Shown here: positions 1,763 to 64,000 of the stretch, one piece after another
Layout of the letters: each line of letters opens with the position of its first letter
How positions within the stretch are numbered: the first letter of the stretch is position 1
From: an uncultured delta proteobacterium
Lineage (GTDB): Bacteria > Desulfobacterota > Desulfuromonadia > Geobacterales > Geobacteraceae
DNA: 64,000 nucleotides
NCBI GenBank assembly: GCA_963815135.1
Contig: CAWFFO010000003.1
Coordinates: 59,346 to 123,345 of the forward strand
Direction of reading: 5' to 3'
The notes under the pieces: model-generated
What the model was told of the DNA's origin: nothing
Database searches by the model: none
Seen by the model: the letters and a program-made list of their open reading frames with translations, nothing else
Translations under genes and position numbers: made by a program

Positions 1763-2027
1763 CAGTTCGCTCCGATAATGAGAGTATAAAAATAGTTAAA
1801 GTTATCACCTCTATGAATTATAATGTTCCCAGAAGAATGCTTATTGTCAACAATTGCCGACGGCCATCCGGTATGCACGGAATACAGCGAGAAAAAGATT
1901 GACAGGATAATCCCGATGCTGCTAGTTTGTATTTTAAATAGTTAAAACCTGTTGATATTCAAGGAAAATCACCTGAATGAAGGTTTCGGAAAAGCAGCAG
2001 GCTGAAAAATTGTAAAACAGGATTTTC

Positions 2028-2116
2028 GCTGGGGGAGTTTAGGCTGAGAGTCTGTTCCGGATGGAACGGACGACCCTTTGAACCTGATCCGGATAATGCC
2101 GGCGGAGGGAAGCGTT
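2028..2116 (+). promoter_or_regulatory. TPP (THI-box) riboswitch upstream of thiS
   Basis: Conserved THI-box strings are present: CTGAGA at 2044-2049 and ACCCTTTGAACCTGATCCGGATAATGCCGGCGGAGGGAA at 2073-2111. It lies directly upstream of thiSGE. Confidence 0.9.
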
Positions 2117-2140
2117 CTTTAGAGTATTTCCATTACCTTG

Positions 2141-3939: not shown

Positions 3940-4935
3940 ATGTATGACGATTTTATTCACAAAGATCTGCGCATCAATTCCTATGGTTCATACCTGCGCC
4001 GTCGCTTTCGCTGCCGGGTCAGCAAGGTGAACGTGGATGGAGGCTTCACCTGCCCGAACCGTGACGGAGTCAAGGGTGACGGCGGGTGCGTCTACTGCGA
4101 CAACACATCTTTTTCCCCACGGGGGACCATCGAGGAAATCCCGCTCAGAAAGCAGATGGAAGACGGGATGGCCTATCATCGCAAGCGGCTCGGAAGCGAA
4201 AAATTCATCATCTATTTCCAGAAATACACCAACACCTATGGGCCGCTTGAAAAGATAACCGGCCTGTATCGGCTTGTACTCGACCACCCCGATGTCCTGG
4301 GCATATCCGTCGGCACCAGGCCCGATTGCCTGTCGGACGAAATATTAGCCCTGCTGGAGGAAATTGCGCAAACACATTATGTCTGTCTGGAACTGGGGCT
4401 GCAGTCCATGGATGACGACATCCTGCGCCGCATCAACCGCGGCCACAGCCTCGACGATTACCTCAGGGCCGTGGAGAAAACCGCGGGAAGGGGAATAGAG
4501 CTCTGCACTCACCTGATCTACGGCTTTCCCGGCGAGACCGCGGAGGGATTCCTCAGGACCGCGGACCTGGTCGCGTCACTTCCCGTCAATTCACTGAAGA
4601 TCCATCAGCTCCATGCGGTCGAGGGAACGAGGCTTGCAGAGATGTACCGGAGCGGTGAATTCATCCCCCTCAGCCACAGTGCATATGTCTCTACCGTCTG
4701 CGATTTTCTCGAACTTTTACCCCGGCGCATCGCCATCCAGCGTCTCTACGGCTCCGCTCCGCTCGCCATAAGGGTAGCGCCCACCTGGGACCTTAAAAAC
4801 AACCAGATGTGGTACTCGATAGTTAACGAACTGAAAAGGCGGGGAACCCGGCAGGGCTTTCGATTGGCGGGAAAAACATCGATGGCGCCGGGCAGTTCCC
4901 CGGCGCCGCGGTCATTGAAAAGAAACCATAAATAA
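3940..4935 (+). CDS. TIGR01212-type (YhcC-like) radical SAM protein
   Basis: VNVDGGFTCPNRDGVKGDGGCVYCDN matches the atypical Cys spacing and overall pattern of E. coli YhcC. It starts 2 nt after the thiE stop. Confidence 0.8.
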   Translation: MYDDFIHKDLRINSYGSYLRRRFRCRVSKVNVDGGFTCPNRDGVKGDGGCVYCDNTSFSPRGTIEEIPLRKQMEDGMAYHRKRLGSEKFIIYFQKYTNTYGPLEKITGLYRLVLDHPDVLGISVGTRPDCLSDEILALLEEIAQTHYVCLELGLQSMDDDILRRINRGHSLDDYLRAVEKTAGRGIELCTHLIYGFPGETAEGFLRTADLVASLPVNSLKIHQLHAVEGTRLAEMYRSGEFIPLSHSAYVSTVCDFLELLPRRIAIQRLYGSAPLAIRVAPTWDLKNNQMWYSIVNELKRRGTRQGFRLAGKTSMAPGSSPAPRSLKRNHK

Positions 4936-4945
4936 CCATTCCTTA

Positions 4946-6106
4946 TCAGAACGGACCGAGCCATATCCTGAAAATCCTGTAAGGAGGCACCCGTTTGTCT
5001 TTCCCGCTATTGAAACGGGGCATGCCGTCAATCTGCGATGACGTCACATAAAGGTTGCCCTCGGGGCCAATGCTCATACTGTCAGGCCACCGGAGCAGCT
5101 TGTTGCCTACCAAAAGCTCCTGCGAACCGTCATAAACACGGTAACGCTTTACCGAACTGTCTTCCAGGGAAGTAAAATAGAGGTTGAAATCCTGATCCAT
5201 CACCATGCCGTCAACAGGACCAGTGTCCGCAAGCTTTTCCACATGACTTGACACCTCACCCGGCAAAAGGGCGGCATCTTTCAGATAAGCGGTATTTATT
5301 CGATACAAAGTCCTGCCGGTAAGCGCGTGGTAGTAGAGAAATTTTCTGTCCGGATCCAGTGCGATACCGTCCACATTAATCAGCGGGGTCTTTCCGTTTT
5401 CATCAAGCAAATCCCGGCCGTTTATTGCCAGTTTCACATCCGGCTCGGCTTTCGTTGACGGATCATCGGCAAGAAGTCTCCTGCTCAGTCCGGTCTGCAG
5501 ATCGACCACGACTATTGCCCCGGTCCCCGAATCGCTGATATAGGCAAAATCATCCATCGTGTCGATCCGTACATCGTTGAGATAACTCGCCGGCGGAGCG
5601 ACCGTATCGTCAAAATGGAAAACCTGCTCCACCTTGCCGGTTTCAGGGTCGACCTTGACAAGTTTCGCGCCTCCCTTCACGACTCCCCTGAAACCAGGAG
5701 AGGCAGGATCGAGAATCCAGAGATAGTCGTCGTCATCCACATAGACGCTCTGCACGCAGACAAAATGATTGCCCGCGGCAATAACTTTTCCATTCCAGCG
5801 GTTCCATTCGCTGTCGGGATATGGCCGCAGCGAGCCGTCGGGCATCAATTCAGCCACCGAGTATTGCGGGATGCCCACCCAGCGGGGGAAATTGACAAAT
5901 ACCCTCCCTTTAGAGGAAACGGTTATTCCGGTTACCTGATCGGCCAGCTCGGCAAACTCAAAGAGCCCGCTGCCGAGTGGACGAGGGATCATCGGGTAGG
6001 TGACCGGGCGGACCCGGCAACCCGCCATAAACATGCAAATGACCAACATCAACAGGAATGCCGAATTCAGCCTGCTGCCGGATATTTCCATTTCTCCCTC
6101 CCGCAA
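4946..6106 (-). CDS. Secreted or lipoprotein beta-propeller, major royal jelly/Yellow-family-like
   Basis: Signal/lipobox LLMLVICMFMAGC. Repeated propeller-type motifs: YLWILDPASPG, NDVRID, AYISDSGTGAIVVVDL, DGIALDPDRKFLYYHAL, LYFTS. The family assignment is by recollection of MRJP/Yellow motifs. A possible start is the internal Met at 6091. Confidence 0.55.
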   Translation of the reverse strand: MREGEMEISGSRLNSAFLLMLVICMFMAGCRVRPVTYPMIPRPLGSGLFEFAELADQVTGITVSSKGRVFVNFPRWVGIPQYSVAELMPDGSLRPYPDSEWNRWNGKVIAAGNHFVCVQSVYVDDDDYLWILDPASPGFRGVVKGGAKLVKVDPETGKVEQVFHFDDTVAPPASYLNDVRIDTMDDFAYISDSGTGAIVVVDLQTGLSRRLLADDPSTKAEPDVKLAINGRDLLDENGKTPLINVDGIALDPDRKFLYYHALTGRTLYRINTAYLKDAALLPGEVSSHVEKLADTGPVDGMVMDQDFNLYFTSLEDSSVKRYRVYDGSQELLVGNKLLRWPDSMSIGPEGNLYVTSSQIDGMPRFNSGKDKRVPPYRIFRIWLGPF

Positions 6107-6277
6107 ACTTTATTGTCGCTAACTTAAGCCGCAACTCCGGTAACAATGTGACGCTTTAGCGCTGGCGAAAAACCAGGATCAAGAAACACTTAACTTCCTT
6201 TGATTCCGGTTTAGCCGGTATGAAGTATTCAGTTTAAGGCCCTCTTTTGTCTTGTATTGGCGCAAACACCCGACCAT

Positions 6278-6763
6278 CTACAGATCATTGAGATTGCTGA
6301 ACTCGCCCCACGCCAGGTATGTCTTGGGCGATTCCACGAAATCGAAGATATTTTCCATTATGTTCAGGTGCCGCCTTTCTTCTTCGGCAATCCGACGCAG
6401 CAGATTAGCTACATGTCCATTTTTCTCCTTCTCCGCCAGGTCCTCATAAAGCCGGATAAAGTCCTCTTCAGCCTTTATCGAGTATCTGTAACCATCGGGG
6501 TCCTTGCGAAGGATTTCCAGGGGGTCTTTTCTTTCCATGAGCTTACGGAAAGCGTTTCTCGCCTTCTCCAGGGCTATGGAATCGGCGGCGGAAGGGTTTT
6601 CGCCTTTTTTCATGGCCTCGAATATATCGCGGTGCTTCCGCTCCTCCTCGGCAAGCAGGTTGAAAATAGTTTTTAATTCCGGTTCGTTGGCTTCCTCTGC
6701 CAGTTTCCCGTATAATTTCATACCGTCCTCTTCCATACGTATCGCAAAGTCAAAGACATTCAT
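6278..6763 (-). CDS. Rubrerythrin/ferritin-like di-iron four-helix protein, with no rubredoxin domain
   Basis: Two E-x-x-H motifs, LLAEEERKHRDIF and RIAEEERRHLNIM. The N-terminus MNVFDFAIRMEEDGMKLY is typical of the rubrerythrin family. Confidence 0.75.
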   Translation of the reverse strand: MNVFDFAIRMEEDGMKLYGKLAEEANEPELKTIFNLLAEEERKHRDIFEAMKKGENPSAADSIALEKARNAFRKLMERKDPLEILRKDPDGYRYSIKAEEDFIRLYEDLAEKEKNGHVANLLRRIAEEERRHLNIMENIFDFVESPKTYLAWGEFSNLNDL

Positions 6764-7147
6764 AAATACCTCCGTCGGTTTTGAAAAGTTGCTTCCTTTG
6801 CTGATAACAGTATATCAAAAATACCGGCATAATTCCGGCGCGATTGAACGGGAGTGAGACTGGAAAAAGATAAGAAAATATACATGCGGTGTAAAACTAC
6901 ACCAGGGTCGTGGAACGTATGAAGAAGTCAGACATAAGGGATCATTTCAAATTCCCGGACCTGACTTGTGGCAGAACGATTGGCATGCGGATGAGATTTG
7001 CGACAACGATGTGATCCGCAGTTTGTTCGTCTCCGTCCGGATATGCGTATAATCACCTTCACCTGTGAGGCAGGCGGGTTTGCAGCTTAACCGGATCAAA
7101 CAGAACGGCTTTCAATCAAGTTGTCAATTAAAGGGGAATCCGGCAAG

Positions 7148-8872
7148 TTATGCCATTGCAAGCGGCGGCTTTTCTTCCGGATCGATATGTATATCAATCA
7201 AAGTCGGGCCCTGCCTGTTGGCCAGCAATTGCCAGTCTATCCGGTCAAGATCCTGCGCATTACGTACAGTAAAAGCCTCCGCGCCCGCTGACCTTGCCAT
7301 CATGGCAAAATCCACTGTCGGAATGGCAAAATCCACCTTTTCCCTTCCCAGCAACCGGTGTCCGTGTCGTATCAGGCCGTAAGCCCGGTCGTTCATCACG
7401 ACGAAAAGGACCGGCAGTTGTCTCTCCACAGCCACGGTAATCTCCTGTCCGCTCATCAGGTAGCATCCATCACCTGTGATGCAGACCGATGGCGACCGCC
7501 GGTTCGCAAATGCCGCACCGACAGCTGCGCCGACCGCCCAGGCCATGGTCGCGAACTCGATGGACAGGTGATAGCTCTCCGGACGGGGGTGGAAAAAATA
7601 GTGGATGGTCCAGGGAACACTGTTGCTGTTATCAATGAAGAACCGGCTTTCACGAGGGAGGTGACGAATCAGTTCCGCATAGACCCGGGGAGCTTTAAGC
7701 ATGCTGTCTGGGACGCCAGGCTGACAGCATGCCGGATTCAGAACCTCAATCCCTGTTGGAATATAACCCGCAGCGGCCGCTGCATCGGAATCACAGGACC
7801 AGCGGTTTAATAACCCCGGTTGTTCCGATTTTTGCAGCTCTTCTAGGCGTGCATTGAGTCGGGCAAATACCGCGTCTATTGATCCGGCCACATGCAGCCG
7901 GGCCATGGGCGAGCGGGTAAAACAAGACCGGTCATTGTGGATATGAACCATTTTGCTGTTCATCAGCACCGGGTCCCACCTGCTTGTGGACCATTCACCC
8001 AGGTTGGTGCCAGCCGCCAGGATCAGCTCAACCGCTCTGTCCTCCAGCGCCCGTCGCGCCGAGGCATGTCCTGCACAGCCGAACACGCCCCGCACCAGCG
8101 GATGATAGGGATTAACGACCGATTTGCCGCGAGGAGTTGTGATTATTTCCGCTCCCGTAAGCTCCGCGAAGCGGATGATTTCCCCTGCGGCGCCGGTGCA
8201 ATTGTGGCCAACAAGCAAAACAATTTTCCCTTTTCGTTCCAGGACGGAGGAAATTTCTGCATCCAAACGCTCCACTGCCGCAATGTCCACCAAGGATTCT
8301 CCTGCACTCAAAAGAGGATACAACCCGGCAAAAGATGCCGGAGCACTTGACTCGGCTGCGAAAACATCGATGGGAATGCTCAGGTGAGCCGGTCCCCGTG
8401 GAGTGCCCAATGCGGTGGTGAGGGCTGCAGCCAGCTTCTTTTCCAGCTGGTTGGGGTGTGTAACCATGGAGTTGTAGCGTGTACAGTGTTCAAACATGCC
8501 CATGATATCAACACCGTCCCTTGAAGAGTCCTGAAAGCAGCCGAAACTTAAATCCGGAATCCTGGTCTGGGATGTAATAACAAGCATGGGAATCTGCTCG
8601 GCATAGGCAGAGGCAACACCGGTAATAAGGTTGGTGGCACCAGGACCGGTTGTCGAGCAGCAGACTCCGATTCTGCCGCTTTCGCGCGCATAGCCGTCGG
8701 CGATAAAAGCCGCTCCGGATTCATGCCGGGTCAGAACCGCACGGGGTCCGCCGCACCTTTCGCTTCGCGCCAGAGCATCAAATAGCGGACCGAGCGGGCT
8801 TCCGGGAACGCCGAAAACATATTCCACACCAAATTGCTCGAGATAATCGACGATCAGATCGCTCACAGTCAA
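7148..8872 (-). CDS. Thiamine-diphosphate-dependent enzyme, acetolactate-synthase large-subunit-like
   Basis: VSDLIVDYLEQFGVEYVFGVPG...CCSTTGPGATNLITGVASAY...ITGDGCYLMSGQE (TPP-binding GDG). The preferred start is TTG 8872, preceded by AGGAGG at 6 nt and overlapping the upstream stop as TTGA. The ORF-track start at 8989 would overlap the aldolase gene by 120 nt. Confidence 0.85.
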   Translation of the reverse strand: MTVSDLIVDYLEQFGVEYVFGVPGSPLGPLFDALARSERCGGPRAVLTRHESGAAFIADGYARESGRIGVCCSTTGPGATNLITGVASAYAEQIPMLVITSQTRIPDLSFGCFQDSSRDGVDIMGMFEHCTRYNSMVTHPNQLEKKLAAALTTALGTPRGPAHLSIPIDVFAAESSAPASFAGLYPLLSAGESLVDIAAVERLDAEISSVLERKGKIVLLVGHNCTGAAGEIIRFAELTGAEIITTPRGKSVVNPYHPLVRGVFGCAGHASARRALEDRAVELILAAGTNLGEWSTSRWDPVLMNSKMVHIHNDRSCFTRSPMARLHVAGSIDAVFARLNARLEELQKSEQPGLLNRWSCDSDAAAAAGYIPTGIEVLNPACCQPGVPDSMLKAPRVYAELIRHLPRESRFFIDNSNSVPWTIHYFFHPRPESYHLSIEFATMAWAVGAAVGAAFANRRSPSVCITGDGCYLMSGQEITVAVERQLPVLFVVMNDRAYGLIRHGHRLLGREKVDFAIPTVDFAMMARSAGAEAFTVRNAQDLDRIDWQLLANRQGPTLIDIHIDPEEKPPLAMA

Positions 8873-9537
8873 AACAAACCTCCTTTTTCCACCATCTCCC
8901 CAGCCGCGGCTTCGAAGGCTATTGCAGCCTCGACCGAGAGCGGTTCGCAGAATAGCATGTCCGCCACGGGGGGCGAGAGAGTAATGCAACCGATTCCATT
9001 TCGGGCCAGTATCGCCAGATCATCTGTAGTTCGAACGCTCGCGGCCAGAATTTCAGTGCTGCCATCAGTATTACGCAATGCCTCAGACATCCGGGCAATC
9101 AGCGAATGACCGTCCAGGCCCGCATCGTTCATCCGCCCCAGGTACGGAGCCACATATGCCGCACCAACCGAAGCTCCAAGGAGGACCTGGAAAGGGGCAT
9201 ACACCGCGGTTATACAGATCCTGATGCCTTCGTCAACCAATCCGGATGCAGCTTCCAGACCTTCCCTTGTGACCGGCAGTTTGACCACGACATTTTCACT
9301 GATGCGCGCCAACTTTTGTGCGTTTCGACGGAGAATCATGGCTTCATTCCCCCAGCTTTGCAAATAAACTTCCCGCGCGCCCAATTCTATAATCTGTTCG
9401 ACAAAATCGCCCAGACAGTCCGGTGTCAGTCCGGAATTTCGCAATAAAAGCGGATTTGTGGTCACACCGTAAAACACTCCGGTTTTCATAAGGGATTCAA
9501 TTGCGAAAATATCTGCAGAATCTATATACAATTTCAT
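8869..9537 (-). CDS. Transaldolase-family protein, fructose-6-phosphate aldolase/TalC-like
   Basis: MKLYIDSADIFAIESLMKTGVFYGVTTNPLLL...VVVKLPVT...ITAVY. The 222-aa size class is typical of Fsa/TalC. Confidence 0.85.
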   Translation of the reverse strand: MKLYIDSADIFAIESLMKTGVFYGVTTNPLLLRNSGLTPDCLGDFVEQIIELGAREVYLQSWGNEAMILRRNAQKLARISENVVVKLPVTREGLEAASGLVDEGIRICITAVYAPFQVLLGASVGAAYVAPYLGRMNDAGLDGHSLIARMSEALRNTDGSTEILAASVRTTDDLAILARNGIGCITLSPPVADMLFCEPLSVEAAIAFEAAAGEMVEKGGLF

Positions 9538-9830
9538 TTTGCACCTTTTATAATTTATTAAAAATAAAAATATTTATTTTTATTGAATTACAATAAAACA
9601 TATAGTATACATAAAGAGTAACTAACCTCCTTGTTATGAGCCTCGAATGTCGGATATGGTTTTTTCCATTCGCCGCCGATTTCGGGGTTTTTTTTCTTCT
9701 GATTTTATTAAGAATAAAACAAGGGGCTGTTCAGAGAAACGGACAGGTTAACCTCAATTTTACTTGAAAAAACAGGTACACACAAAGTTGACTAGGAGTT
9801 TGAGCAGTCAAACGCGGTTCTTGATTTTTT

Positions 9831-10157
9831 TTAATGGCCAATTGAAAAAAGTGGTTCCTCTATCAGCTCGCCACGACATACTGGACATTTGCCGGGCTTG
9901 GAAAGCCGATCTCTTTTCCGAAACACGAAACCGCATTTCCCGCATATCGCCGGTTTCACCAAAATGACCTTCCCGCTTCTGTGAAGCATAACTCTAATAT
10001 GTTCCAGGTTGTCTAGTACTTCCTTTTCCGAAATTCCCAATTCCATGGATATATCTCTGGCAGCCATCTCGCGGTGTTGAATCAGAGCCATTATTTCATG
10101 GCGGATCGTATCGTGTCTTTCAACGGGAATAAACGGTTCAGCTGATTTTTTCTTCAT
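9831..10157 (-). CDS. Small regulator with a winged-HTH fused to a C-terminal zinc ribbon
   Basis: 108 aa with IRHEIMALIQHREMAARDISMELGISEKEV (HTH), then CGKCG...17 aa...CPVCRG (a C4 ribbon). Confidence 0.55.
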   Translation of the reverse strand: MKKKSAEPFIPVERHDTIRHEIMALIQHREMAARDISMELGISEKEVLDNLEHIRVMLHRSGKVILVKPAICGKCGFVFRKRDRLSKPGKCPVCRGELIEEPLFSIGH

Positions 10158-10184
10158 GACGACACCGGAGTTGCAGCAGGTTTC

Positions 10185-10727
10185 TCAATTGTCATCTGAC
10201 TCGATTTCATTGTTATCCAGTTTGCGGAGTCTTTCCTGCTCCTCCCGGATAAGGGGCTTGTATCTGATCAGATTGTGAAAATTTTCAAGTGCCAGAATTG
10301 TAAACCCCGAAACAAAAACCGCCCAGAAATACTCTTCCAGAGACCCGGCCATGTGATAGAACCCGTAAAATGCAGCGAGATAGATAACATGCAGCAAGCC
10401 GCGAGATGGCTTGGCACCGCTCATCATCTTCGAAAGGATCAGTATGATGGCGGAGAAGCTGTAAAGCACGAGCAGGCCGCTGACCAGATTCAGCGGCGGT
10501 GGAGGTCCGAGCTTGGCCCTGATATTTTCAGGCAGCGACGGGATAAAACGGAAGTCGTTCTGCGCTCCTATACTGACAAGGAGAAAAGCGGAAAGGGCCC
10601 ACATCCCGCGGACGGACTTCGCCTGAAGATATCGGATCTTATCAAGTACTTCGCGGCGCTGAAGTTTTTTTCCCCGGCCACCATCACCGGTTTCCGAAAA
10701 CGACGGCTCTTCAGGTCTACTCACCAT
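10185..10727 (-). CDS. Hypothetical integral membrane protein, about 4 TM, with an acidic C-terminal tail
   Basis: Hydrophobic segments MWALSAFLLVSIG, LVSGLLVLYSFSAIILIL, LLHVIYLAAFYGFY and FWAVFVSGFTILAL. The tail is EEQERLRKLDNNEIESDDN. No family was recognised. Confidence 0.5.
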   Translation of the reverse strand: MVSRPEEPSFSETGDGGRGKKLQRREVLDKIRYLQAKSVRGMWALSAFLLVSIGAQNDFRFIPSLPENIRAKLGPPPPLNLVSGLLVLYSFSAIILILSKMMSGAKPSRGLLHVIYLAAFYGFYHMAGSLEEYFWAVFVSGFTILALENFHNLIRYKPLIREEQERLRKLDNNEIESDDN

Positions 10728-10730
10728 AGT

Positions 10731-11576
10731 CTAATGTCCGTTTCCGTCATCGCCACGGGGTCGCTGTATTCGATCGTTTTTTACCTTTTCCGAAAGACAC
10801 TTCAATGACTGGGCAAGATTTTCCAGTTCACCTTCGAATTCAGGGATTTCCCGCCCGGGTTTCCCCTTTGCAATATCATTGCAGTAGCCTGTCAATATCT
10901 TTACCGGAGTCAGTATGGAACGTCGCAAAAGCGCTGCGGCCCCTCCTACGGTGAGAAACAGGATTAGAACCGCAAACACAATCATTCGGCCTCGCATGGT
11001 CGCAAGGGCATCCCTCAGCGGCTTTCTCGAGAGACCAATATCAAGCGTGCCGAGGACCTTCTGATTGGATGTGTGAAAATGGCAGGAGGAGTTATAGCAT
11101 TCCGGTTCATTGTATATCGGCTCGGTAATAGCAAGAACCTCCCGGCCCTTTTCATTGATGAAGGTGCGGGCTTTCTGCATTGCTCCCAGTTTCGCGGTCG
11201 GTGTGGGCCCGGCGTGGCAGCCAATACATCCGGCGGTTTTTTTATCCACCAGATGATTGAGTTCTTTAGGGTTGGATGAGAATTCGATCAAGCCTTTTTT
11301 ATTGAAAATGCGGACATGCTCCACCTCATGTTGTTCACCGACATTTTCGATTATGTTGCGCAGTGTTTTTCGATCGGAAGTGAGCATCGAGTAATGTGTC
11401 GATTGCACAACCACGTTTGCCAGACTCGTTGCGTGCAGGGTCGCCGTATGCGTCATGTCTGACTTAATAACCGAATAAAGCAGGATACAACAAACAATGA
11501 CAAAACCGGTCACCGCAATGGCTACCGGAAATATGGCCTTCCCTGCGAGAGTCTTTATCATGACAAATCTCCTCAT
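10731..11576 (-). CDS. Membrane sensor with a periplasmic haem-c-motif domain and HAMP, lacking any transmitter domain
   Basis: TM1 is IFPVAIAVTGFVIVCCILLY. The periplasmic region carries CIGCH (CxxCH) and CYNSSCH (Cx4CH). TM2 is MIVFAVLILFLTVGGAAAL. A HAMP-like stretch LLRRSILTPVKILTGYCNDIAKGKPGREIPEFEGELENLAQSL follows, and the stop comes about 20 aa later. Confidence 0.65.
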   Translation of the reverse strand: MRRFVMIKTLAGKAIFPVAIAVTGFVIVCCILLYSVIKSDMTHTATLHATSLANVVVQSTHYSMLTSDRKTLRNIIENVGEQHEVEHVRIFNKKGLIEFSSNPKELNHLVDKKTAGCIGCHAGPTPTAKLGAMQKARTFINEKGREVLAITEPIYNEPECYNSSCHFHTSNQKVLGTLDIGLSRKPLRDALATMRGRMIVFAVLILFLTVGGAAALLRRSILTPVKILTGYCNDIAKGKPGREIPEFEGELENLAQSLKCLSEKVKNDRIQRPRGDDGNGH

Positions 11577-11906
11577 TCCGTTTCGAGATAGAAATTAAAC
11601 GGCAATTCCATTTCCGGTGTCCGAAACAATAAAAACAGGAATTGCGTATAGTGTCAACAATTGGATTTATCTTACAGGAAAGATTTTCCGCTCAGATCGT
11701 TTTTAGCTGAATTTATTCTCATTACTGATATAGATTCAGAATCGGGAATAATTCAGCTTGGGCGGGGAAAGAGTTAATCGACAAGAATTTATGAAGCCGG
11801 AAATTGCATAAATCTGTTCCTTTCGGAAAAAAAGTATATATTTTCTCTTAAGGAATGATCAGGGTTCAAAAGACATGTACCATATAAGCTGAAAAGACAG
11901 GCAATA

Positions 11907-12170
11907 TCAAGGATTACCGTTGATTTCTTTCGCGGTAACAGTACCTTTCTCCTTTTCAGCGGATACAAAAAGCCCCTTGATCATGGAATAAAAAAGGACC
12001 AGTCCGGGGATAAGCTGGAAGACAATGATCAGTGCGCCGAAAGCCAGGAATATGGCTATCATAACTCCGCTTCCTTCTTTGCTTCCACCCGTTTCGGCAA
12101 ATGCCTGCGACGTACCGGCGATCAGTGCTATGATCGCACAGAGAAAAGTGAACCTGTCTTTCGCTTTCAT
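11907..12170 (-). CDS. Small hypothetical membrane protein
   Basis: 87 aa from ATG 12170, with AGGAGG 6 nt upstream. It has a signal-like N-terminus FLCAIIALIAGTSQAFA plus one TM, VMIAIFLAFGALIIVFQLIPGLVLF. Confidence 0.45.
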   Translation of the reverse strand: MKAKDRFTFLCAIIALIAGTSQAFAETGGSKEGSGVMIAIFLAFGALIIVFQLIPGLVLFYSMIKGLFVSAEKEKGTVTAKEINGNP

Positions 12171-12702
12171 GGCGTCCTCCTCTTTGAAGGCAAGATACCA
12201 AATCATCCTCGATGAAGGCTATGTCTCCATTATCCAGCCAACACAAACAGGATGAAAAAGTATCTCTTTTCGACCGCAATCTTTTTTCAGCTCAAACGCT
12301 GAAAAATCACATGGCATTATATAACCATTTCATGAAATAATTATACCATAAAATATTGTAAATATATTTTTTTCGTAGAATTTTTCGCACACTTACATTT
12401 CTTTTTCATATAAACATATAATTGACTATAGTGAATAGTTATAAATATTATTGCCATTCACAATTTCCGGTTTACCATTATTTGTAGAGGTAAAATGATT
12501 TTATTATTACGGCTGAGTGCCCCCTTCTTTTTGCACCGTTTTCACATGCAGGTGCTGTCCTGTGAGATTCAGGCCTGTGATAATTTGACTCCGCATGGTG
12601 CATGGGGTAATCTTCAAGGTTGACATGCAATATAATGGAAGTTGCAAACGCGGAATTCCGAACGCGGAAATGCTGCAATACAACAGAAACAGAGGCCACT
12701 AA

Positions 12703-15700
12703 ATGAAAAACACCGGAAAGTCCGAAAAATATTTTCCTTACGAAATCCAGATAAACAGAGAAGCCTGGGACAAGCTAGGCCTGGATTCCGTCGCCAGGCA
12801 TTTGCGCACACGTACGAACATGCCGGATATCATATTCTGTCGGCATGTGGCAAACGCCTTGAACAAGCGTCCGGAAGGCCGCGACAAACCCGCAAAAGCC
12901 GCTAACGTATATTTTTACGCCTTACTGACCAGAATTTTTCGTTACCTGCTCAACCATTACAATACGGTCAAAGCACCACAGATCCTGGAAAAAGTACTTG
13001 ATCCGGAAAACCAGGAAATTCCAATGGATAAACTTCGGGCGGCAATGGGAGGTTTCGTCGAGCACTTTCCTGATTCACGGGTTATTGAAAAAACAGGGTC
13101 CGCACAAGATTATATTTCAGGCGCAGACCCGGGAAACCGCGGCAAGAAGATGATCGTCTCGGAATTTCTCCTGCTGGGGTTGTCACTGGAAAATCCCGCG
13201 CTCGAGGAATTTCAGGAGTTATTTGATACCACCGCTCTTTTAACTGCGGTACCGTTCGAAGCGGTTGTCAATTCCCTCGAAGAAATGTTCAAAAAGGGCC
13301 CTTCATTTGAGCCCTTTGAACGTCCGGTTATGGAATTTCTGAGGATGCCGATAAAATTTTCCCCTTCATCCCTTGCCGGACAACTGGAATACATCAGAAC
13401 AAACTGGTCGGAATTGCTCCCGCTGGAACTCCTGTCGGAGATGCTTCTGGGTTTTGATATTCTTCGCGAAGAGGAAAGGGAGTGGTGGGGCGGTCCCGGC
13501 GAACCGCAGGTCCTTGAATTCGAAAGGGTCGGCCGAACCGGAAAGGGTTCTTACGATTACCCGGAATATGAAAGATTCTCAGCCGACGCGGACTGGATGT
13601 CGAATGTGGTCATGATTGCCAAGATGGTATATGTGTGGCTCGACCAGCTTTCGAGGTACTACGGCAGGGATATTTCAAAGCTGGATCAGATCCCGGATGA
13701 AGAACTGGACAGGCTTGCCGGATGGGGTTTCAACTCCGTCTGGCTGATCGGTGTCTGGGAACGCTCACCATCATCACAGAGATTAAAGCAGCTGAGCGGT
13801 AACCCTGAAGCAGTTTCTTCCGCTTATTCACTATATGATTACACTATTGCAGTCGATCTGGGAGGTGAGGCCGCACTCGCCAACCTGAAGGAACGGGCAT
13901 GGCGCCGCGGAATCCGGCTGGCCAGTGACATGGTCCCCAACCACACCGGCATTTTTTCCAGATGGACGCGGGAGCATCCCGATTGGTTCATCCAGCTCGA
14001 CTATCCGCCATATCCCTCTTACAGCTTCTCTGGACCGGACCTCTCCTTTTCCTCCGAAATAAGTATCCGTATCGAAGACGGATACTGGGACCGTCGCGAC
14101 GCCGCCGTGGTATTTCAGCATGTGGACAATAACAACGGCAGAACACGTTACATCTACCATGGCAATGACGGCACCAGCACTCCCTGGAACGACACCGCCC
14201 AGCTCAACTACCTGATTCCCGAAGTGCGTGAAGCGGTGATCAGGACGATAATCCACGTGGCGCGGCAGTTTCCCATCATACGCTTCGATGCCGCCATGAC
14301 ATTGGCGAAGAAACATTACCAGAGGCTCTGGTATCCCCAGCCGGGGCATGGCAGCGGTGTGCCGTCAAGGGCGGAACACGGCATGAGCAGGGAACAGTTT
14401 GACGAACTTTTCCCCCAGGAATTCTGGCGCGAAGTGGTTGACCGTATGGCTGTAGAAGCCCCCGATACTCTCCTTCTCGCTGAAGCCTTCTGGCTCATGG
14501 AAGGATATTTCGTCCGGACCCTCGGCATGCACCGGGTTTACAACAGCGCATTCATGAACATGCTGAAGATGGAGGAAAACGCAAAATACCGACAGACGGT
14601 CAAAAACATCCTCGAGTTCAATCCGGAAATTCTGAAGAGGTTCGTCAATTTCATGAGCAACCCTGACGAACGGACCGCCATTGACCAGTTCGGCAAGGAA
14701 GCTAAATACTTTGGAGCTGCTGTCCTGCTTGTCACCATGCCCGGTCTGCCCATGTTCGGGCACGGCCAGGTCGAGGGTTTTACGGAAAAATACGGCATGG
14801 AATACCGCAGGGCATACTGGCAGGAAGAAATCGACTGGCATCTGGTGGCTGTGCATGAAAACAGGATTTTTCCCCTGATGAAAAAGCGCCGGCTGTTCAG
14901 CGGTTCAGAAAACTTCGTCATGTACGATTTTTTTGCGGGAGATCAGGTCGACGAGAATGTCTTTGCATATTCCAACAGGTTGGGCAACGAACGCACTTTA
15001 ATCTTCTACCATAACAAATATGCATCGACCGCCGGCTGGATCAGAATGTCCACCGCCGCGGCCGCAAAAGACGACCAGGGACAAGCCACGCTTGTACGTA
15101 AGACCCTTGGGGATGCCTTGGGCTTCAACCCGGACGGGCGTTATTATTATGCTTTTCGTGACTATTCTTCGAGCCTGGAATACCTCCGCCATGGAAAAGA
15201 ACTTTCTGAAAACGGCATGTACGTGGAGCTTGAGGCCTACAAGTACCATGTATTCCTCGATTTTTGCGAAATACGAGATGACGATTACGGCACATGGGGA
15301 AAGCTGTGCCATCAATTGCAGGGCAGACCGGTCGTGAGTATCGATGAAGAAGCGAAACAGATCCGTTTTGCAGGGGTAATCGATCCGTTCAGGAAACTTT
15401 GCATCGATTTGCAGGAACGGCTGGATATCCTTTTGGCACCGGAAAGTGCGGCCGAAGCAGTCGAAGAATGCCTCGAAATTCTTCGGGAAGAGCTGATTGC
15501 ATTCCTTTCAGCTCTTGGAGACCATACAGGCCACAGGGAAAATATCGGGATCATTGCCGGCAGGATAATTAGCGAGCTGAAATTTTGCCGAAAATTCACG
15601 TTAATGCGCAAAGGCAAGAAAAGCGAGAGCAGAGCTGCTGCCTTTTTTCAAGCCGTGCTGAAAGGAGAGGACTGCCGATTCAACCGGTTTTTCCTTGCAA

Positions 15701-59425: not shown

Positions 59426-60367
59426 TCAGCCAAACAGGACGATCAGCGCAAAACCCGACACCATCAGCACGGCGCCGGCAAAACGCTCCCTGATTGAATC
59501 CTCTTTCAGAAATGCCCAGGCAAGGGCAATGCTGAACATGACACTCAGTCTCTTCACCGTCGTGACATAGGTCACCTTTGCGATACTCATGGCAAAGGCC
59601 GCCGCAAAAACGGCGGTAACGAACAGCAAAGCCGGCAGCATGGCTTTCCTGACCGTGCCTTCCTTCAGGACCTCACCCCATCTGCCCCTGTACGTCCAGG
59701 CGGCCAGTGGAGACATGCCCAGGACAAGACACGTCCAATAGACAGCCATGTAATGCAATGGTGATGAAAGGGAAATAGCCTTTTTGGAAAGTGTCGCGGT
59801 AAACGAGAAGAGTAATGCGACCATACACATGTTTATCGCACCCCGCTCCCGGAACAGTGCCCTGAAAGGTTCCAGCATCCCTCTTTTCAAGGCGCCGGCA
59901 TTCAGGATGTAGGCGCCCGCGGCAACCATCAGCACCCCCACGCCTCCCGCGATGCCGATTCTCTCCCCTATCAGCAGGAAAGGTACAACCAACATGAATA
60001 CCGGCGAAAGAGAAAGAAGCGGTGCAACGATGCTGAGCGGGGACAGCCTGAGGGCCTGCATGTACAGGATCTGGGCAAGGATTTCCAACGGCAGGGCGGT
60101 GAATATGGCCTGGTAGAAACCGGGCGCGGGACGAGGGATGCCATAGAGAAAGTCGGCGATGTAAATCAACGGCAGGGGGATGGCGAATAACAGCAGGGTA
60201 AATAGCATGGAATTGTTTTTCGTCAGGGCCCTCTTCGCCGAGAAATCCCGCACCGAGTCTCCAATTGCCGAGAGAAGCGCTATGTAAATCCACAGCTTCC
60301 CCAATTCATTCCACCCATTCCAGTATTTTTTCCCTGATATCCTCCCAGCGGATTCCGAATCTCCCAA
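59426..60367 (-). CDS. EamA/DMT-superfamily transporter
   Basis: About 10 TM with two EamA repeats. The annotated ATG 60367 overlaps the rtcR 3' end by 60 nt, so TTG 60304 is a plausible alternative start. Confidence 0.75.
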   Translation of the reverse strand: MGDSESAGRISGKKYWNGWNELGKLWIYIALLSAIGDSVRDFSAKRALTKNNSMLFTLLLFAIPLPLIYIADFLYGIPRPAPGFYQAIFTALPLEILAQILYMQALRLSPLSIVAPLLSLSPVFMLVVPFLLIGERIGIAGGVGVLMVAAGAYILNAGALKRGMLEPFRALFRERGAINMCMVALLFSFTATLSKKAISLSSPLHYMAVYWTCLVLGMSPLAAWTYRGRWGEVLKEGTVRKAMLPALLFVTAVFAAAFAMSIAKVTYVTTVKRLSVMFSIALAWAFLKEDSIRERFAGAVLMVSGFALIVLFG

Positions 60368-61918
60368 GGTACTTCCTCAAGCGGTCGGCGTCATTTACCG
60401 ATTTCCTTTCGTCCCGCGAAATATGGAACAGCGTCCTGCCTGCATCGGACAGGCTTCGCGAATTCCGGCATACACGCAGGACACCGTCCAGCTGCAATTT
60501 GTCGAACCTGTCCAATTTTCCGATGGCCTCCCCTCCAAGGACCGACCGGAGAACAGCCTCATGATCGGACTGGCTGGTCCCGGACCATTCACGGCGAAGG
60601 CGGACTATCTCCTCCTCGACCACGGCCCTGGTGATGCGCCCTCCCGGGGCGAGTGTAGCCATCCGGGTCACCGCCCCGCCCAGGTCACGGAAATTCGCCG
60701 TCCAAAAAGCATCGCCGGAGACAGCGAAGCTCAGGAAACATCTGCGAGCCTCGCTGTTGAAGGTAACACGCATCCCACTGCGTTCGCAGAAGCGGTCCAT
60801 CTCATAATCCAGGTTGGGCTCGATATCTTCCGGCCGTTCACGGAGCCCTGGAAGTTCGAAGGTCCAGAGATTGATACGGGCAAGCAGGTCCTCGCGGAAC
60901 AGCCCCTCCGTACATCGTCCCGGAGATCGTGGTTCGTGCCGCACAGCAGCTGGAAGTCGCTGGCCGTTTCATGGTCGGCCCCCACCGGGAGGAAGGTTTT
61001 TTCCTCGATCGCCCGCAGGAGCATTGCCTGCTCGTCACGCCCCAGTTCTCCCACTTCATCAAGAAACAGCATGCCGCCGTCGGCGGAGCGGAGCAGCCCG
61101 TGGCGGTCCTGAGAGCGCCGGTAAAAGCCCCGCGCTTGTGCCCGAACAGTGCCGACATGGCGGCGTCGCCTCTCAGTGTGGCGCAGTTCACCTCCACGAA
61201 ATTCCCCTCGAGCCGATGCCGGGCCTTTTTTAGCTCAAAATGCGGCGGGCCAGCCGGGATTTGCCCGCGCCGGTGGGGCCGGTAAGTAGAATCGGATCGC
61301 GGAGCTAGTCGCGCCACGCTTTCGATCTGCTCAATGAGCTGGTTGAAACTGGAATTGCGCGTATCGATCCCGGATTTCAGGAACGAGATATCGTCGCCCC
61401 TTTCCTCGTTGAAGCGAGTGGCAATCCGGTCGTATTTCGAAAGGTCGAGATCGATAATCGAGTATTCGCCGGCGACCTTGTGTTCCATCCTTCCGCGAAG
61501 GCCGGGTCTGGATGAGCCTGTGCGGGCAAGGCGCCGGGATTCGGTCAGGAGGAACAGGCATATCTGGGCCACGTGGGTGCCGGTGGTTATATGGACCAGG
61601 TAATCTTCATTGTCCGGATCAAACGGGAATTGCCGGGAAAAATCATGCAATGCGCCGTAGACCTCCTGAAAATCCCAGGGGTCATCGAATTCTATTTCAT
61701 GCGGAATAACCTCGGTCTCGGGAGAGACATGCCGAATATCTTCTGTTATCTGTGCTCGAGCCGGCTGTGTTTTTTCTGGTAGAGGAGCACAAAGCTTGAT
61801 CAAAAAGGTCTTCGTGCTGGCAGACGGCAACAGTAGGACGCCAGCGCTCCCATCTCTTGCGCCCGCTACCCTGGTCCAGGACCGGTCCCAGCAGACCGAA
61901 AACAACCATATGTTTCAT
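60306..61918 (-). pseudogene. rtcR: Sigma-54-dependent activator RtcR (CARF-like N-domain, AAA+, HTH), with the reading frame broken 7 times
   Basis: The gene can be reconstructed collinearly with E. coli RtcR. Segments include MKHMVVFGLLGPVLDQG..RWERWRPTVAVCQHEDL, SPETEV, DPWDFQEVYGALHDF, YLVHITTGTHVAQICLFLL, RLIQTRPSRK, IIDLDLSKY, SFLKSGIDTRN, DPILLTGPTGAGKSRLARRIL, FVEVNCATLRGD, GAFTGA, GMLFLDEVGELG, FREDLLARINLWTFELPGL and SVNDADRLRKYL. The pieces are spread over ORFs 61697-61918, 60838-61905, 61331-61561, 60731-61072 and 60306-60944. Confidence 0.85.
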
Positions 61919-61948
61919 AAAACATCCTCTATTAATTTATAAATTTGG

Positions 61949-61977
61949 ATAGTAATAACTCCTCGGTCGATTGTCAA
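61949..61977 (-). promoter_or_regulatory. Putative sigma-70 promoter of rtcR
   Basis: Minus strand reads TTGACA (61977-61972), a 17-nt spacer, then TACTAT (61954-61949). A GAGGA RBS precedes ATG 61918. Confidence 0.45.
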
Positions 61978-62051
61978 GAAATCGGGCTACTAACAGGTTG
62001 AAATTCTAAATGCGCAATAATATCAGCATGTTACAATATTATCGAAAATGC

Positions 62052-62067
62052 TGGCACGGCGATTGAA
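62052..62067 (+). promoter_or_regulatory. Sigma-54 (-24/-12)-type promoter element, divergent from rtcR
   Basis: The sequence is TGGCAC-GGCGA-TTGA. The -24 is perfect, while the -12 is TTGA rather than TTGC. It is in the position expected for an RtcR-activated operon. Confidence 0.55.
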
Positions 62068-62168
62068 ATACAAAAGACGTCAGATGTCGCCGGGCCGGCG
62101 GCGCATTTCCCCGTTGCATTGAAACACGGCAAAAGTTCGAGCGATTGGGTAATGGGTTCCGTAACGGG

Positions 62169-62260
62169 TTCTGACCGGGAAATACGGCGACCTGGTTAGC
62201 TCAATGGGTAGAGCAGCGTACCGGAATACGCGAGTAGCAGGTTCGAGTCCTGCACCAGAA
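62169..62260 (+). ncRNA. tRNA-like module (not a decodable tRNA) inside the structured leader of the rtc operon; a candidate YrlA/Y-RNA-like tRNA mimic
   Basis: D arm GCTC-AATGGGTA-GAGC (62199-62214). Stem GCGTA/TACGC with a 6-nt loop CCGGAA (62216-62231). 5-nt variable region. T arm GCAGG-TTCGAGT-CCTGC (62237-62253). The 3' acceptor strand is ACCAGAA (62254-62260). The 5' acceptor strand is split, TTCT(G) at 62169-62173 and (G)GT at 62194-62196, around a 21-nt insert. There is no CCA. Confidence 0.6.
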
Positions 62261-62635
62261 GGGTTGACCAACCCTCTTGACCGCGAAAGCGGCAAGACAC
62301 GCGGCCGGAGGGGAAACGGCCGTTCATGCCCGACCTCTTCCATCGATCCGAACGCACAACGTCGGGAAACCTCGACAGGCCGGACCGGATACGGGAGGGC
62401 GGGAAACCATAAACAGTGCCATGCAGCGTGCGCATCGTTTTCCGGATAGCGGACACAGGCAGCCCTTTACGTCGGCGGGGATTGTCTTCGTTAAAGGGCC
62501 TTCGAAATGCGGTTGAAGGGAAACCCGGACATGCCTCCGCAGTTGTTCGTGCGGCGGAGGACCGCTGCTCCCCCGAAGGCTTCAACCGGTCACAATTTTA
62601 CGGAAAAATGAATTTTTGGTAAAAGGAGGAGAATC

Positions 62636-63741
62636 ATGTTAATCGTCAAAAAAATAAAAGTCCATTCCCACGAAAAGGGATTTTATTTAAAGACGGGGAG
62701 TTTAAGGGCATACTGGGAACGGGCCGGCATCTGTTTGCCGATCCGCTGCGCAAGATTCGCGTGGATGTGGTGTCCCAGCGCGAGCCGTGGCTGACTCACC
62801 GGGACCTCGATCTGATCGTCAGGTCGGGACTTCTGGAAAAGGATGCCGCAATGCTTGATCTCAAGGACCATCAACGGGGACTTGTCTGGATCGACGGGCG
62901 TTTCGCGCGGGTCCTGGGACCGGGGCTGTATGTCCTGTGGACGAAATTCCGGGACATACGCACCGAAGTGGTTGATGCGCGATCCGTCAGTTTCGAACAC
63001 AAAGAGATGTTTACGATTCTCGGCTCGCCCGGAGCGGAGAAATTTCTCGACACATTCACCGTCGAGGAAGGGTTCGCCGGGATCTTTTTCCGGGAAGGGG
63101 AATACATTCAGACATTCGGTCCAGGCCGCTTCACGTTCTGGAAAGACATGGGCAAGATCCGCCTGCATCCGGTGGATATGCGTGAAACTATACTCGACAT
63201 CTCCGGGCAGGAGATCCTGACCGCCGACAAGGTGACGATCCGTCTCAATGCGGCCATAACCGGCAGGGTAACTGACGCGCGCAAAGCGGTATGCGGGGTG
63301 GAGAATTTCACCCAGGCCCTTTACCGTGAAGCACAACTGGTAATCCGGGACATCGTGGGATCACTCAACCTGGATTCACTGCTGTCCGACAGGAACAGCC
63401 TGACCCGGGACGTGGAGGAAACCCTTCGCAGGCGGGCCGCGGCGTTCGGTGTGCATGTCGTTTCAGCGGGAGTCCGCGACCTGATTCTGCCGGGGGACAT
63501 GAAAGAACTCCTCAACAAGGTAATCCAGGCGCAGAAGGCCTCCGAGGCAAACCTGATCGTGCGGCGGGAGGAAACGGCCGCCATGCGCAGCCAGGCCAAC
63601 ACGGCAAAGCTGCTGGAGAACAACCCGACACTCATGCGGCTCCGCGAACTGGAAGTACTGGAAAAAATCGCTTCCAGCTCGGAACTGAAGGTGGTGCTTG
63701 GAGAAAAGGGGCTGACCGAAAGGATCATTACCCTGCTCTGA
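62636..63741 (+). pseudogene. SPFH/Band-7 (slipin-like) domain protein with one frameshift in the first 20 codons
   Basis: ATG 62636 follows AAAAGGAGGAG and gives MLIVKKIKVHSHEKG. The protein continues as ILFKDGEFKGILGTGRHLFADPLRKIRVDVVSQREPWL... in the 62761 frame. The junction is at 62676-62685 (a G3/T4 run). The SPFH core is QEILTADKVTIRLNA...RDLILPGDMKELLNKVIQAQKASEAN. Confidence 0.8.
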
Positions 63742-63758
63742 ACAGTGAATTGATATGA

Positions 63759-64000
<242 letters not shown>

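Follow-up and report, generated by a model that had tools for sequence, protein, structure and literature searches.

The 64,000-nucleotide stretch of contig CAWFFO010000003.1 analyzed here, which derives from an uncultured member of the Geobacteraceae and is referred to in its whole length as the window, carries a tRNA-like element (positions 62190–62261, plus strand) between the divergent gene rtcR and a gene encoding a slipin, a protein of the SPFH family. We consider with high confidence that this element is a non-decoding, tRNA-shaped RNA domain, and with the same confidence that it belongs to a conserved RNA of ~350 nt (window positions ~62092–62437) composed of blocks Z, A, tRNA-like, C1, C2, D, and E. 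Judged by sequence alignment, the element can also be assigned with high confidence as an orthologue of Pcar_R0061, which was described from Pelobacter (Syntrophotalea) carbinolicus as a "mutant tRNA" (Aklujkar et al. 2012, BMC Genomics 13:690, PMC3543383). Hence it is not new as a kind, and the suggestion of an earlier note on this DNA that it might be a novel type of RNA does not stand. What appears to be undescribed in the searchable literature is its breadth across phyla, the conserved RNA surrounding it, its constant partnership with slipin, and its link to long tRNA arrays. The account that we favor as a whole, and hold to be about half likely, is that this non-decoding orthologue of Pcar_R0061 and the ~350-nt RNA around it act as a shape-only tRNA decoy or handle of a slipin/Rtc stress module.

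The tRNA-like domain: shape and decoding features

ARAGORN reported a single tRNA-like gene in the whole 64 kb, at 62190–62261 on the plus strand, labeled "tRNA-???" with a 2-nt anticodon, which corresponds to a 6-nt loop. The same interval scored 39.4 bits with the Rfam tRNA family (RF00005), above its gathering score of 29 (whole-window E = 8e-5), and no other Rfam family was found in 61900–62700 at E ≤ 10. The element is composed of an acceptor stem with five contiguous pairs, a D arm, the anticodon arm GCGTA-CCGGAA-TACGC, a 5-nt variable region, and a T arm. It has no CCA and no U33, the latter position being occupied by C in the loop CCGGAA. The earlier note had described a tRNA mimic lacking both features, and this description is borne out by ARAGORN, Rfam, and the covariation presented below. 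The 6-nt loop that it also reported is present in the window sequence but may be a homopolymer indel error, the loop reading CCGGAAA in the closest relative (locus L083) versus one A fewer in the window; loops of 5–6 nt also occur in eight other homologues, window aside. The possibility, raised in the same note, that a corrected sequence would reveal a normal tRNA found no support, because the L083-type element has C33, a 5-bp acceptor stem, no CCA, and no long variable arm. ARAGORN calls the elements of L083–L085 "tRNA-Ser(GGA)" (75 nt), with an aligned variable region of 5 nt. Bacterial tRNA-Ser requires a long variable arm.

Folding energy gives no support to the structure, and the evidence for it is therefore comparative only. 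By minimum free energy, the 573-nt leader was no more stably folded than its shuffles (z = −0.98), and the same was true of the cloverleaf region alone (z = −1.04), which was not predicted to fold as a cloverleaf when isolated. Of the structured leader of ~550 nt proposed previously, comparative structure thus remains, in blocks, but not a folding energy better than that of shuffled sequences.

The comparative evidence for pairing, elbow, loop, and acceptor features was obtained from an alignment of 51 homologues (A2). Pairing was evaluated over 31 pairs, namely those of the cloverleaf, of two hairpins close to it, and of a candidate helix between blocks A and E, with slid partners and 500 shuffles as controls. 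Standard pairs were present in 96% of the cells, compared to 31–46% with slid partners, and changes on both sides were recorded for 17 pairs and 126 cells, values reached by none of the 500 shuffles; the covariation in homologous loci on which the earlier note had staked its proposal was therefore found. Compensatory change affected all five pairs of the anticodon stem, four of four in the acceptor stem, and three of five in the T stem, with the D stem invariant throughout. Additionally, U8, A14, G19, A21, G46, and T54-T55-C56-G57-A58 were unchanged in 50–51 of the 51 sequences, and the Levitt pair between positions 15 and 48 covaries, appearing as G15-C48 (n = 24), A15-U48 (n = 12), or A15-A48 (n = 7, the window clade). 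The homologues score 40–63 bits against the Rfam tRNA model, often with truncated model ends (e.g., 4–67). On these comparative grounds, the domain bears the marks of a genuine L-shaped tRNA fold maintained by purifying selection.

The features associated with decoding, in contrast, are not kept. Among the 42 homologues with a seven-nt loop, 21 different anticodons are found and U33 is present in 23, while nine of the 51 homologues have loops of 5–6 nt. In Burkholderia, the anticodon arm ends in a GAAA tetraloop on a 6-bp stem (GCCGGC-GAAA-GCCGGC). The contiguous acceptor helix measures 3–6 bp in 50 of 51 homologues, usually 3–5 bp and in several 6 bp, and 10 of 51 have CCA where a canonical tRNA would have it. 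A full 7-bp acceptor helix formed by looping out 21 nt, as drawn in the earlier note, exists only in the window and in loci L001 and L003; four more homologues have three of the four extension pairs, and the arrangement is absent in 44 of the 51, so it does not hold for the family. Loop positions 32, 36, 37, and 38 are partly conserved, and some copies from Planctomycetota look nearly canonical. Descent of the tRNA-like body from one isoacceptor of the tRNA arrays described below was considered and rejected, since no array tRNA class was similar to it (top mean score 15/71).

Conserved RNA around the domain

The earlier note had placed the domain inside a longer RNA, in agreement with the conserved blocks found on both of its sides. 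Alignments and pattern searches gave a fixed block order, namely Z, a variable hairpin, A, the tRNA-like domain, C1, C2, D, variable hairpins, and E'/E. Block Z (62092–62104, plus strand as all features of the leader), with the pattern GGCC(R)(R)CGGCGC and the consensus GGCCRRCGGCGC, is situated ~55 nt upstream of block A and is kept in loci of several phyla. Block A (62156–62175), described by GTTCCG-N-yGGrTTCTGAC, was matched by regular expression in most loci and includes a small hairpin (UCCG/yGGr) that is 94.5% paired, with one-sided changes only. It is possibly a degenerate T-arm; the region corresponding to block A in the leaders of Burkholderia and Escherichia coli bears a true T-arm-like hairpin. 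Directly 3' of the tRNA-like domain, the putative hairpin C1 (GGGTTGACCAACCC, 62261–62274) occupies the site at which most homologues have a GGGyu...AACCC hairpin. It is followed by C2 (62281–62292), CCGC-GAAA-GCGG with a GNRA-type loop, in which 89% of cells are paired and four of four pairs show compensatory changes, and by the block D hairpin (62303–62321), GGCCG-N9-CGGCC with a purine-rich loop, for which the alignments give the family consensus GCCCG-AGGGAGG-CGGGC. The latter two had already been noticed in the window sequence alone, and both proved to be kept in homologues, the first with the compensatory changes just mentioned. Blocks E'/E (62398–62437) have the family consensus CGGCAGCAC ... 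GCCnUGYAGYGCGYGGAUACCG, from which the window copy diverges in its 3' half; block E lies downstream of the tRNA-like body in 60 of the 72 loci with sufficient upstream sequence (defined below). Between the conserved RNA and the ribosome-binding site (RBS) of slipin extends a poorly conserved spacer (62438–62622) that measures 182–450 nt in most relatives and at most 1122 nt. A comparison of 13 whole loci with Rfam at gathering thresholds returned tRNA (RF00005) matches only, and the ~350-nt RNA is therefore not a curated family.

Several ways in which the blocks might act together were considered and set aside. Column-pair and stacked-helix covariation scans of two alignments yielded only ambiguous, G-U-rich options of 5–6 bp for long-range helices of Z/A with D/E. 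The candidate helix between the start of block A and block E is 92.5% paired, with variation almost entirely one-sided. A switch between the block D loop, which resembles a Shine–Dalgarno (SD) sequence, and an anti-SD near the RBS was rejected since the pyrimidine-rich motifs 3' of block E are missing in approximately half of the loci, and a terminator or attenuator after block E was rejected as well, being seen in no more than 5 of 54 loci. Since the spacer is variable and neither a terminator nor an anti-SD is general, simple riboswitch-type control of the slipin RBS is disfavored. These observations speak for a discrete RNA unit that would be co-transcribed with the genes, as are yrlA and yrlB in Salmonella. 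Regarding the terminator-like elements, loci L025, L036, L043, L066, and L078 carry the hairpin GCCyCCCGAGGGC and a U-run ~167–172 nt after block E, and the window has a related sequence, GCTCCCCCGAAGGC, at ~62567–62580 without the U-run.

Distribution and gene partners

The slipin family comprised 4875 homologues at E ≤ 1e-20, and a scan of one genome per GTDB species gave 80 loci, of which 72 have at least 650 nt of upstream sequence. In 71 of these 72, the pattern for the tRNA-like body matched no more than 2 kb upstream of slipin. The module occurs in Desulfobacterota, Planctomycetota, Lentisphaerota, and Lindowbacteria, with a diverged version in Burkholderia. RtcR upstream and RtcA/RtcB downstream accompany it in Desulfobacterota, Lentisphaerota, and one Planctomycetota locus, and they are absent nearby in most Planctomycetota; the sigma-54-type promoter element and the divergent rtcR are kept in the same three groups (one locus in the case of Planctomycetota) and in Burkholderia. 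Because the body precedes slipin in nearly all loci while most Planctomycetota have no Rtc genes nearby, the constant pairing, as judged from gene order, is that of the RNA with slipin, and both the Rtc genes and the tRNA arrays are lineage-specific neighbors. The earlier note had linked the RNA to the repair enzymes, a partnership that most Planctomycetota loci, with no rtcR, rtcA, or rtcB in the vicinity, do not bear out.

ARAGORN identified 670 tRNA genes in the 80 loci, and all upstream tRNAs share the strand of slipin. In Desulfobacterota, Lentisphaerota, and some Planctomycetota, one odd tRNA-like gene is located ~320–580 nt upstream of slipin. Many Planctomycetota loci and one Lindowbacteria locus instead have upstream tRNA arrays, with as many as 36 genes within 5 kb, and the distance from the end of the final array tRNA to block A/leader is commonly 57–100 nt. 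For instance, in locus L081, the leader and slipin are situated inside a 31-tRNA array (5849–13308) together with GNAT and HNH genes, and no RtcR was called within 10 kb on either side. Array loci include L010, L014, L018, L019, L022, L029, L048, L062, L070, and L080; L010 and L014 are located on the same contig (CAWDRV010000004.1), ~50 kb apart, so that one Planctomycetia genome has two array–leader–slipin modules. Approximately 15% of the array tRNAs have no U33, and 9% encode CCA.

Among individual relatives, L083 displays the gene order SIR2-x-EamA-RtcR-leader-slipin-RtcA-RtcB with all genes intact and a slipin 89% identical to that of the window. The Burkholderia cenocepacia locus L095 (NZ_CP091013.1, 2210–6871) encodes RtcR (61% identity), slipin (35% identity), and RtcB, with no match to rtcA in the locus; its leader is composed of the sigma-54-type promoter TGGCACGCTCCTCGCT, an isolated T-arm-like hairpin, and a tRNA-like domain at 4154–4226. 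A further case is E. coli STEC639 (L082; CP061233.1, 4475–6928), where an island between yjbD (DUF3811) and lysC harbors a slipin-family gene (33% identity, full length) and a gene with a nucleotidyltransferase domain. Its 530-nt leader has the sigma-54-type promoter TGGCACGCTTCTCGCA, the block-A-like sequence GCGTGTTCCGTCAG, and a lone T-arm-like hairpin, TGGG-TTCGATT-CCCA; no tRNA was found in this leader by ARAGORN or Rfam, and no activator gene is adjacent. In addition, a 2026 paper reported an SPFH gene within the rtc locus of Pseudomonas aeruginosa. A full module was also seen on a 94-kb contig classed as viral (L088, IMGVR_UViG_3300007072_000340), with 10 tRNAs, blocks Z/A/T/D/E, and a slipin of 60% identity. 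A phage origin of the module was rejected: 50,697 phage records contained no slipin homologue, and one of eight IMG/VR matches to the block E pattern was a real module, the other seven being chance matches.

The window locus and its slipin

The gap between rtcR and slipin measures 717 nt (61919–62635), close to the ~700 nt previously estimated, and Pfam confirmed the context of divergent rtcR, SPFH gene, and rtcA. The rtcR gene (60306–61918, minus strand, divergent from the leader) encodes an activator with a CARF domain and a sigma-54 AAA+ domain, recognized by the Pfam families RtcR, Sigma54_activat, and AAA_lid_14 on three frameshifted open reading frame (ORF) pieces. The slipin gene (62636–63741, plus strand; Pfam Band_7; family length 368 aa) is split in two frames, 62636–62794 and 62761–63741, with one A missing from an A-run near 62683. 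Since both genes are intact in the syntenic L083, whose rtcR encodes 537 aa, and the slipin shift corresponds to an A lost from an A-run, these frameshifts are likely homopolymer indel errors, and short features such as the 6-nt loop need to be read with caution. The public assembly has the same truncated slipin ORF (P0001, 100% identity). Downstream, the 5' part of rtcA (RNA 3'-phosphate cyclase; Pfam RTC) occupies 63780–64000 on the plus strand and continues past the window end; rtcB is the next gene after rtcA in L083, L086, and L001, and for the window locus it would lie beyond the window end.

The leader is preceded by a sigma-54-type promoter (62052–62067, plus strand), TGGCACGGCGATTGAA, with −24/−12 elements reading TGGCAC-N5-TTGA, from which a transcription start near 62078 is predicted. 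This element, already pointed out in the earlier note, recurs as TGGCAY-N5-TTG(A/T/C) at the equivalent site of RtcR-linked relatives, which is consistent with promoter activity. The slipin RBS, AAGGAGG (62623–62629, plus strand), is kept in the alignments. On the basis of this arrangement, we propose with high confidence that the RNA would be transcribed as the 5' part of a slipin-rtcA(-rtcB) operon from the sigma-54-type promoter next to rtcR. Elsewhere in the window, a TPP riboswitch (2021–2127, plus strand; Rfam RF00059, 69.7 bits) bears no relation to the tRNA-like element.

The AlphaFold model of the slipin (predicted local distance difference test, 85.7) shows, at the N-terminus, three beta modules of five strands each, together with an SPFH domain and a ~60-residue helix, and it has no predicted transmembrane (TM) helix. 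When the model was compared to the PDB with Foldseek, the top matches were stomatin, HflK/C, and prohibitin, while major vault protein (MVP) chains were the only matches spanning the whole slipin (>400 columns; E down to 2.5e-11, TM-scores 0.35–0.38). By sequence, the N-terminal modules resemble repeats of the first ~45 positions of Pfam Band_7. Sequence comparison gave no proof of MVP repeats, the N-terminal 184 aa matching only those ~45 positions and nothing in the PDB, and a defense-system label was rejected, with no PADLOC match and only sub-threshold HflK similarity in NCBIfam. The modeled architecture is only suggestive, although it makes a ribonucleoprotein (RNP) reading worth testing.

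Possible function of the RNA

In the account that we favor, the domain would act through the tRNA L-shape and not through the anticodon. Selection would keep the elbow formed by the D-loop and T-loop, the Levitt pair, and a helical anticodon arm, whereas the anticodon triplet and U33, like a complete acceptor stem and a CCA terminus, would be left to decay. Because the former are kept while the decoding features decay, the RNA could be bound by proteins that read tRNA shape, and it would be neither chargeable nor decoding. It would be made only when RtcR turns the operon on, the Salmonella RtcR being responsive to damaged or nicked tRNA and activated by tRNA halves and nicked tRNAs (PMC7790460, PMC10159003). 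As the RNA partner of the stress module, it might serve as a tRNA decoy or as a handle engaging tRNA-directed factors. Candidates are processing enzymes of the RNase P type, which could cut the domain from the transcript, followed by slipin and/or RtcA/RtcB/RtcR. A precedent is YrlA, whose tRNA-like module is likewise encoded under RtcR control and has been suggested to be a competitive inhibitor (PMC4201824, PMC7790460).

A number of points weigh against this account. The literature search yielded nothing on how this RNA is expressed, processed, or bound in any organism. The conserved blocks Z, A, D, and E are left unexplained by a decoy, and no convincing long-range helices connect them. The partial conservation of loop positions 32, 36, 37, and 38 suggests that the loop may not be wholly irrelevant. 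An acceptor helix of 3–6 bp is a poor RNase P substrate; according to Chen et al. (2014, RNA 20:1715, PMC4201824), RNase P cut only the YrlA that has a 7-bp stem. Finally, a role specific to RtcA/RtcB/RtcR cannot be ancestral as far as gene neighborhoods indicate, because most Planctomycetota modules have no adjacent Rtc genes.

The domain could alternatively be a processing punctuation mark, i.e., an RNase P/RNase Z signal that, in genomes with arrays, separates the slipin mRNA from upstream tRNAs or otherwise defines and stabilizes its 5' end, with no later function. We find this unlikely, though worth serious attention. Array, leader, and slipin look co-transcribed in Planctomycetota, given their common strand and the short distance from the last tRNA to block A, and the homologues with a canonical-position CCA and the several 6-bp acceptors would suit such a signal. 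Co-transcripts of tRNA and mRNA are known, e.g., from the E. coli tufB operon. Any tRNA would suffice for this purpose, however, yet the same body is kept across phyla together with blocks Z, A, D, and E, and the acceptor helix is usually of only 3–5 bp, poor for RNase P; both facts weaken the explanation. Furthermore, loci that have no array and whose promoter directly precedes the element retain it as well (the window, L083, L086, and Burkholderia), and its anticodon arm is kept by compensatory change even though RNase P does not need that arm.

Another explanation, which we consider rather improbable, is a vault-like slipin assembly in which the SPFH protein encoded alongside would bind or surround the RNA from Z to E, as in the pairs vault RNA/MVP and Y RNA/Ro60. 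Slipin is the only invariant gene partner of the RNA, its model combines three beta modules, SPFH, and a long helix without a TM helix, MVP chains are the only PDB entries aligning over >400 columns, and the Salmonella operon has an RNP (Rsr with YrlA/B) at the equivalent position (PMC4201824). Against this, no SPFH protein of the slipin family is known to bind RNA, the TM-scores to MVP are low next to top matches with ordinary stomatin and HflK/C, and gene adjacency fits a cis-acting leader equally well. In a broader form of the idea, which we put forward as doubtful, the multi-phylum module of a ~350-nt RNA and a TM-less SPFH protein with vault-like layout could form a bacterial RNP plugged into lineage-specific translational-stress systems. 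Under that same doubtful idea, the module would be coupled in Planctomycetota to long arrays of spare tRNAs, and in Desulfobacterota, Lentisphaerota, and Burkholderia to RNA repair by RtcA/RtcB under the control of RtcR.

It is distinctly improbable that the domain is a built-in bait or sensor whose anticodon loop is cut by stress or toxin nucleases, either to release a half with a 2',3'-cyclic phosphate that activates RtcR or to soak up the nuclease. The response of RtcR to tRNA halves and nicked tRNAs (PMC7790460, PMC10159003) agrees with this proposal, an arms race might explain why the triplet is hypervariable in a loop frame that is partly conserved, and a "sponge" role has been proposed in the literature for the tRNAs of long arrays. 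The GAAA tetraloop that replaces the anticodon loop in Burkholderia, on its 6-bp stem, weakens any version based on anticodon cleavage, including the sensor or substrate roles offered in the earlier note, and most Planctomycetota modules, which have no RtcR nearby, weaken the bait reading too. Loops of 5–6 nt in nine homologues speak in the same direction, and YrlA's tRNA-like domain is not cleaved by the Salmonella stress nuclease.

A decaying tRNA pseudogene or, conversely, a working decoding tRNA is very hard to sustain. The former might be read from the mismatched acceptor stem, the missing CCA, and the odd loop, but the invariant tertiary nucleotides, the many compensatory changes, and the fixed position across phyla contradict it; the latter might be read from the ARAGORN and Rfam calls and the near-canonical Planctomycetota copies, but 21 anticodons among orthologues, U33 in about half of them, the 3–6-bp acceptor, and the GNRA cap in Burkholderia are incompatible with it. 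Least credible of all is a YrlA-class Y RNA working with a Ro60 (Rsr) encoded elsewhere, a class to which the earlier note had tentatively assigned the element: the domain does share with YrlA a covarying Levitt pair and an RtcR-controlled operon, but it is linear instead of permuted, lacks the Ro60 motif, has no TROVE gene among the ten large window ORFs scanned or the called genes in the flanks of its relatives, and matches only tRNA in Rfam.

The comparative signature, in which the shape is kept, the anticodon is free, and one lineage even carries a tetraloop cap, indicates that the cell needs something tRNA-shaped at this point. The element addresses the question of what bacterial Rtc repair does and what tRNA-like domains do in Rtc operons. 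It also joins three topics that have been studied separately, namely repair by RtcR/RtcAB, the long tRNA arrays that stress induces, and an SPFH protein that is widespread, uncharacterized, and without a predicted membrane helix. Cultured and partly tractable organisms carry the module (Syntrophotalea carbinolica, Trichlorobacter thiogenes, Burkholderia, Lacipirellula, Adhaeretor, and possibly P. aeruginosa), and the binding partner of the mimic is therefore directly testable.

Comparison with known systems

Pcar_R0061 has the divergent rtcR on one side and, on the other, a stomatin-like gene with rtcA1 and rtcB behind it. Its reported changes are the anticodon CAG, the replacement of U33 by A, and the burial of CCA within the acceptor stem through a deletion (PMC3543383). 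The window element shares its position relative to rtcR, the stomatin-like gene, and rtcA, and the D arm, anticodon stem, T arm, and ACCAGAA 3' strand align; neither has U33, and in both the acceptor stem is shortened and includes "ACCA" among its paired bases. The loops differ, CACAGAA in Pcar_R0061 versus CCGGAA(A). The orthology follows from the leaders of the window, L083, and L086 (S. carbinolica), which align from promoter to RBS (alignment A4). Aklujkar et al. treated Pcar_R0061 as a one-off mutated tRNA-Asn of a single genome and described neither the conserved RNA on its flanks nor its cross-phylum spread, its tie to slipin instead of Rtc, or the tRNA arrays.

Long tRNA array (L-array) systems are a second point of comparison. 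In Anabaena, TrcR jointly represses a trn array, GNAT genes, an HNH gene, rtcB, and the slipin-family gene alr0740, and translation inhibitors induce them (PMC8421152; PMC10272220). The Planctomycetota and Lindowbacteria modules resemble these systems in their same-strand arrays and, in L081, in the presence of GNAT and HNH genes. The window, in contrast, has no array, with its single tRNA-like call in 64 kb, and its regulator is RtcR/sigma-54 instead of TrcR. The two papers mention no tRNA-like leader before slipin, and alr0740 is likened to slipin by its family label only. Looking further afield, vault RNA with MVP and Y RNA with Ro60 offer a likeness of architecture only, that of a small structured RNA encoded with a protein that combines beta repeats with an SPFH-like shoulder and a long helix; this likeness is limited by the lack of Pfam sequence homology to MVP repeats and by low structural scores, and slipin is known here from its gene and a model.

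The closest functional parallel is YrlA of Salmonella. Its tRNA-like part is reportedly permuted, according to the 2014 description and a later crystal structure, with the acceptor closed by a loop and the ends leaving from the anticodon-stem side, whereas the window cloverleaf is linear: its anticodon hairpin is closed, and the flanking RNA departs from the acceptor. In the Salmonella operon rsr-yrlBA-rtcBA (Chen et al. 2014, PMC4201824), YrlA is likewise a non-coding RNA with a tRNA-like domain in a repair operon controlled by RtcR/sigma-54, and it shares with the window family conserved D and T arm sequences, a covarying 15–48 Levitt pair, and an unconserved anticodon. The ends of YrlA form a Ro60-binding helix with the motif G-N-CGAA-N0-1-G, and its gene lies next to rsr; the window RNA has neither this motif nor an rsr gene. 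Specifically, the motif had no match in 62068–62635 (0.45 expected by chance), and no Ro60/TROVE protein was found among the ten large window ORFs scanned (415–652 aa), in line with the earlier remark that rsr was not visible in the window; the called genes of the L083 and L086 flanks contained no rsr/TROVE either. The conserved flanking blocks are also different, and the partner gene is slipin. Taken together with the linear topology and the Rfam matches to tRNA only, these differences separate the element from the YrlA class, and we propose it as a functional analogue of YrlA rather than a member of its family. It is a second, unrelated tRNA mimic kept in RtcR-controlled operons beside YrlA.

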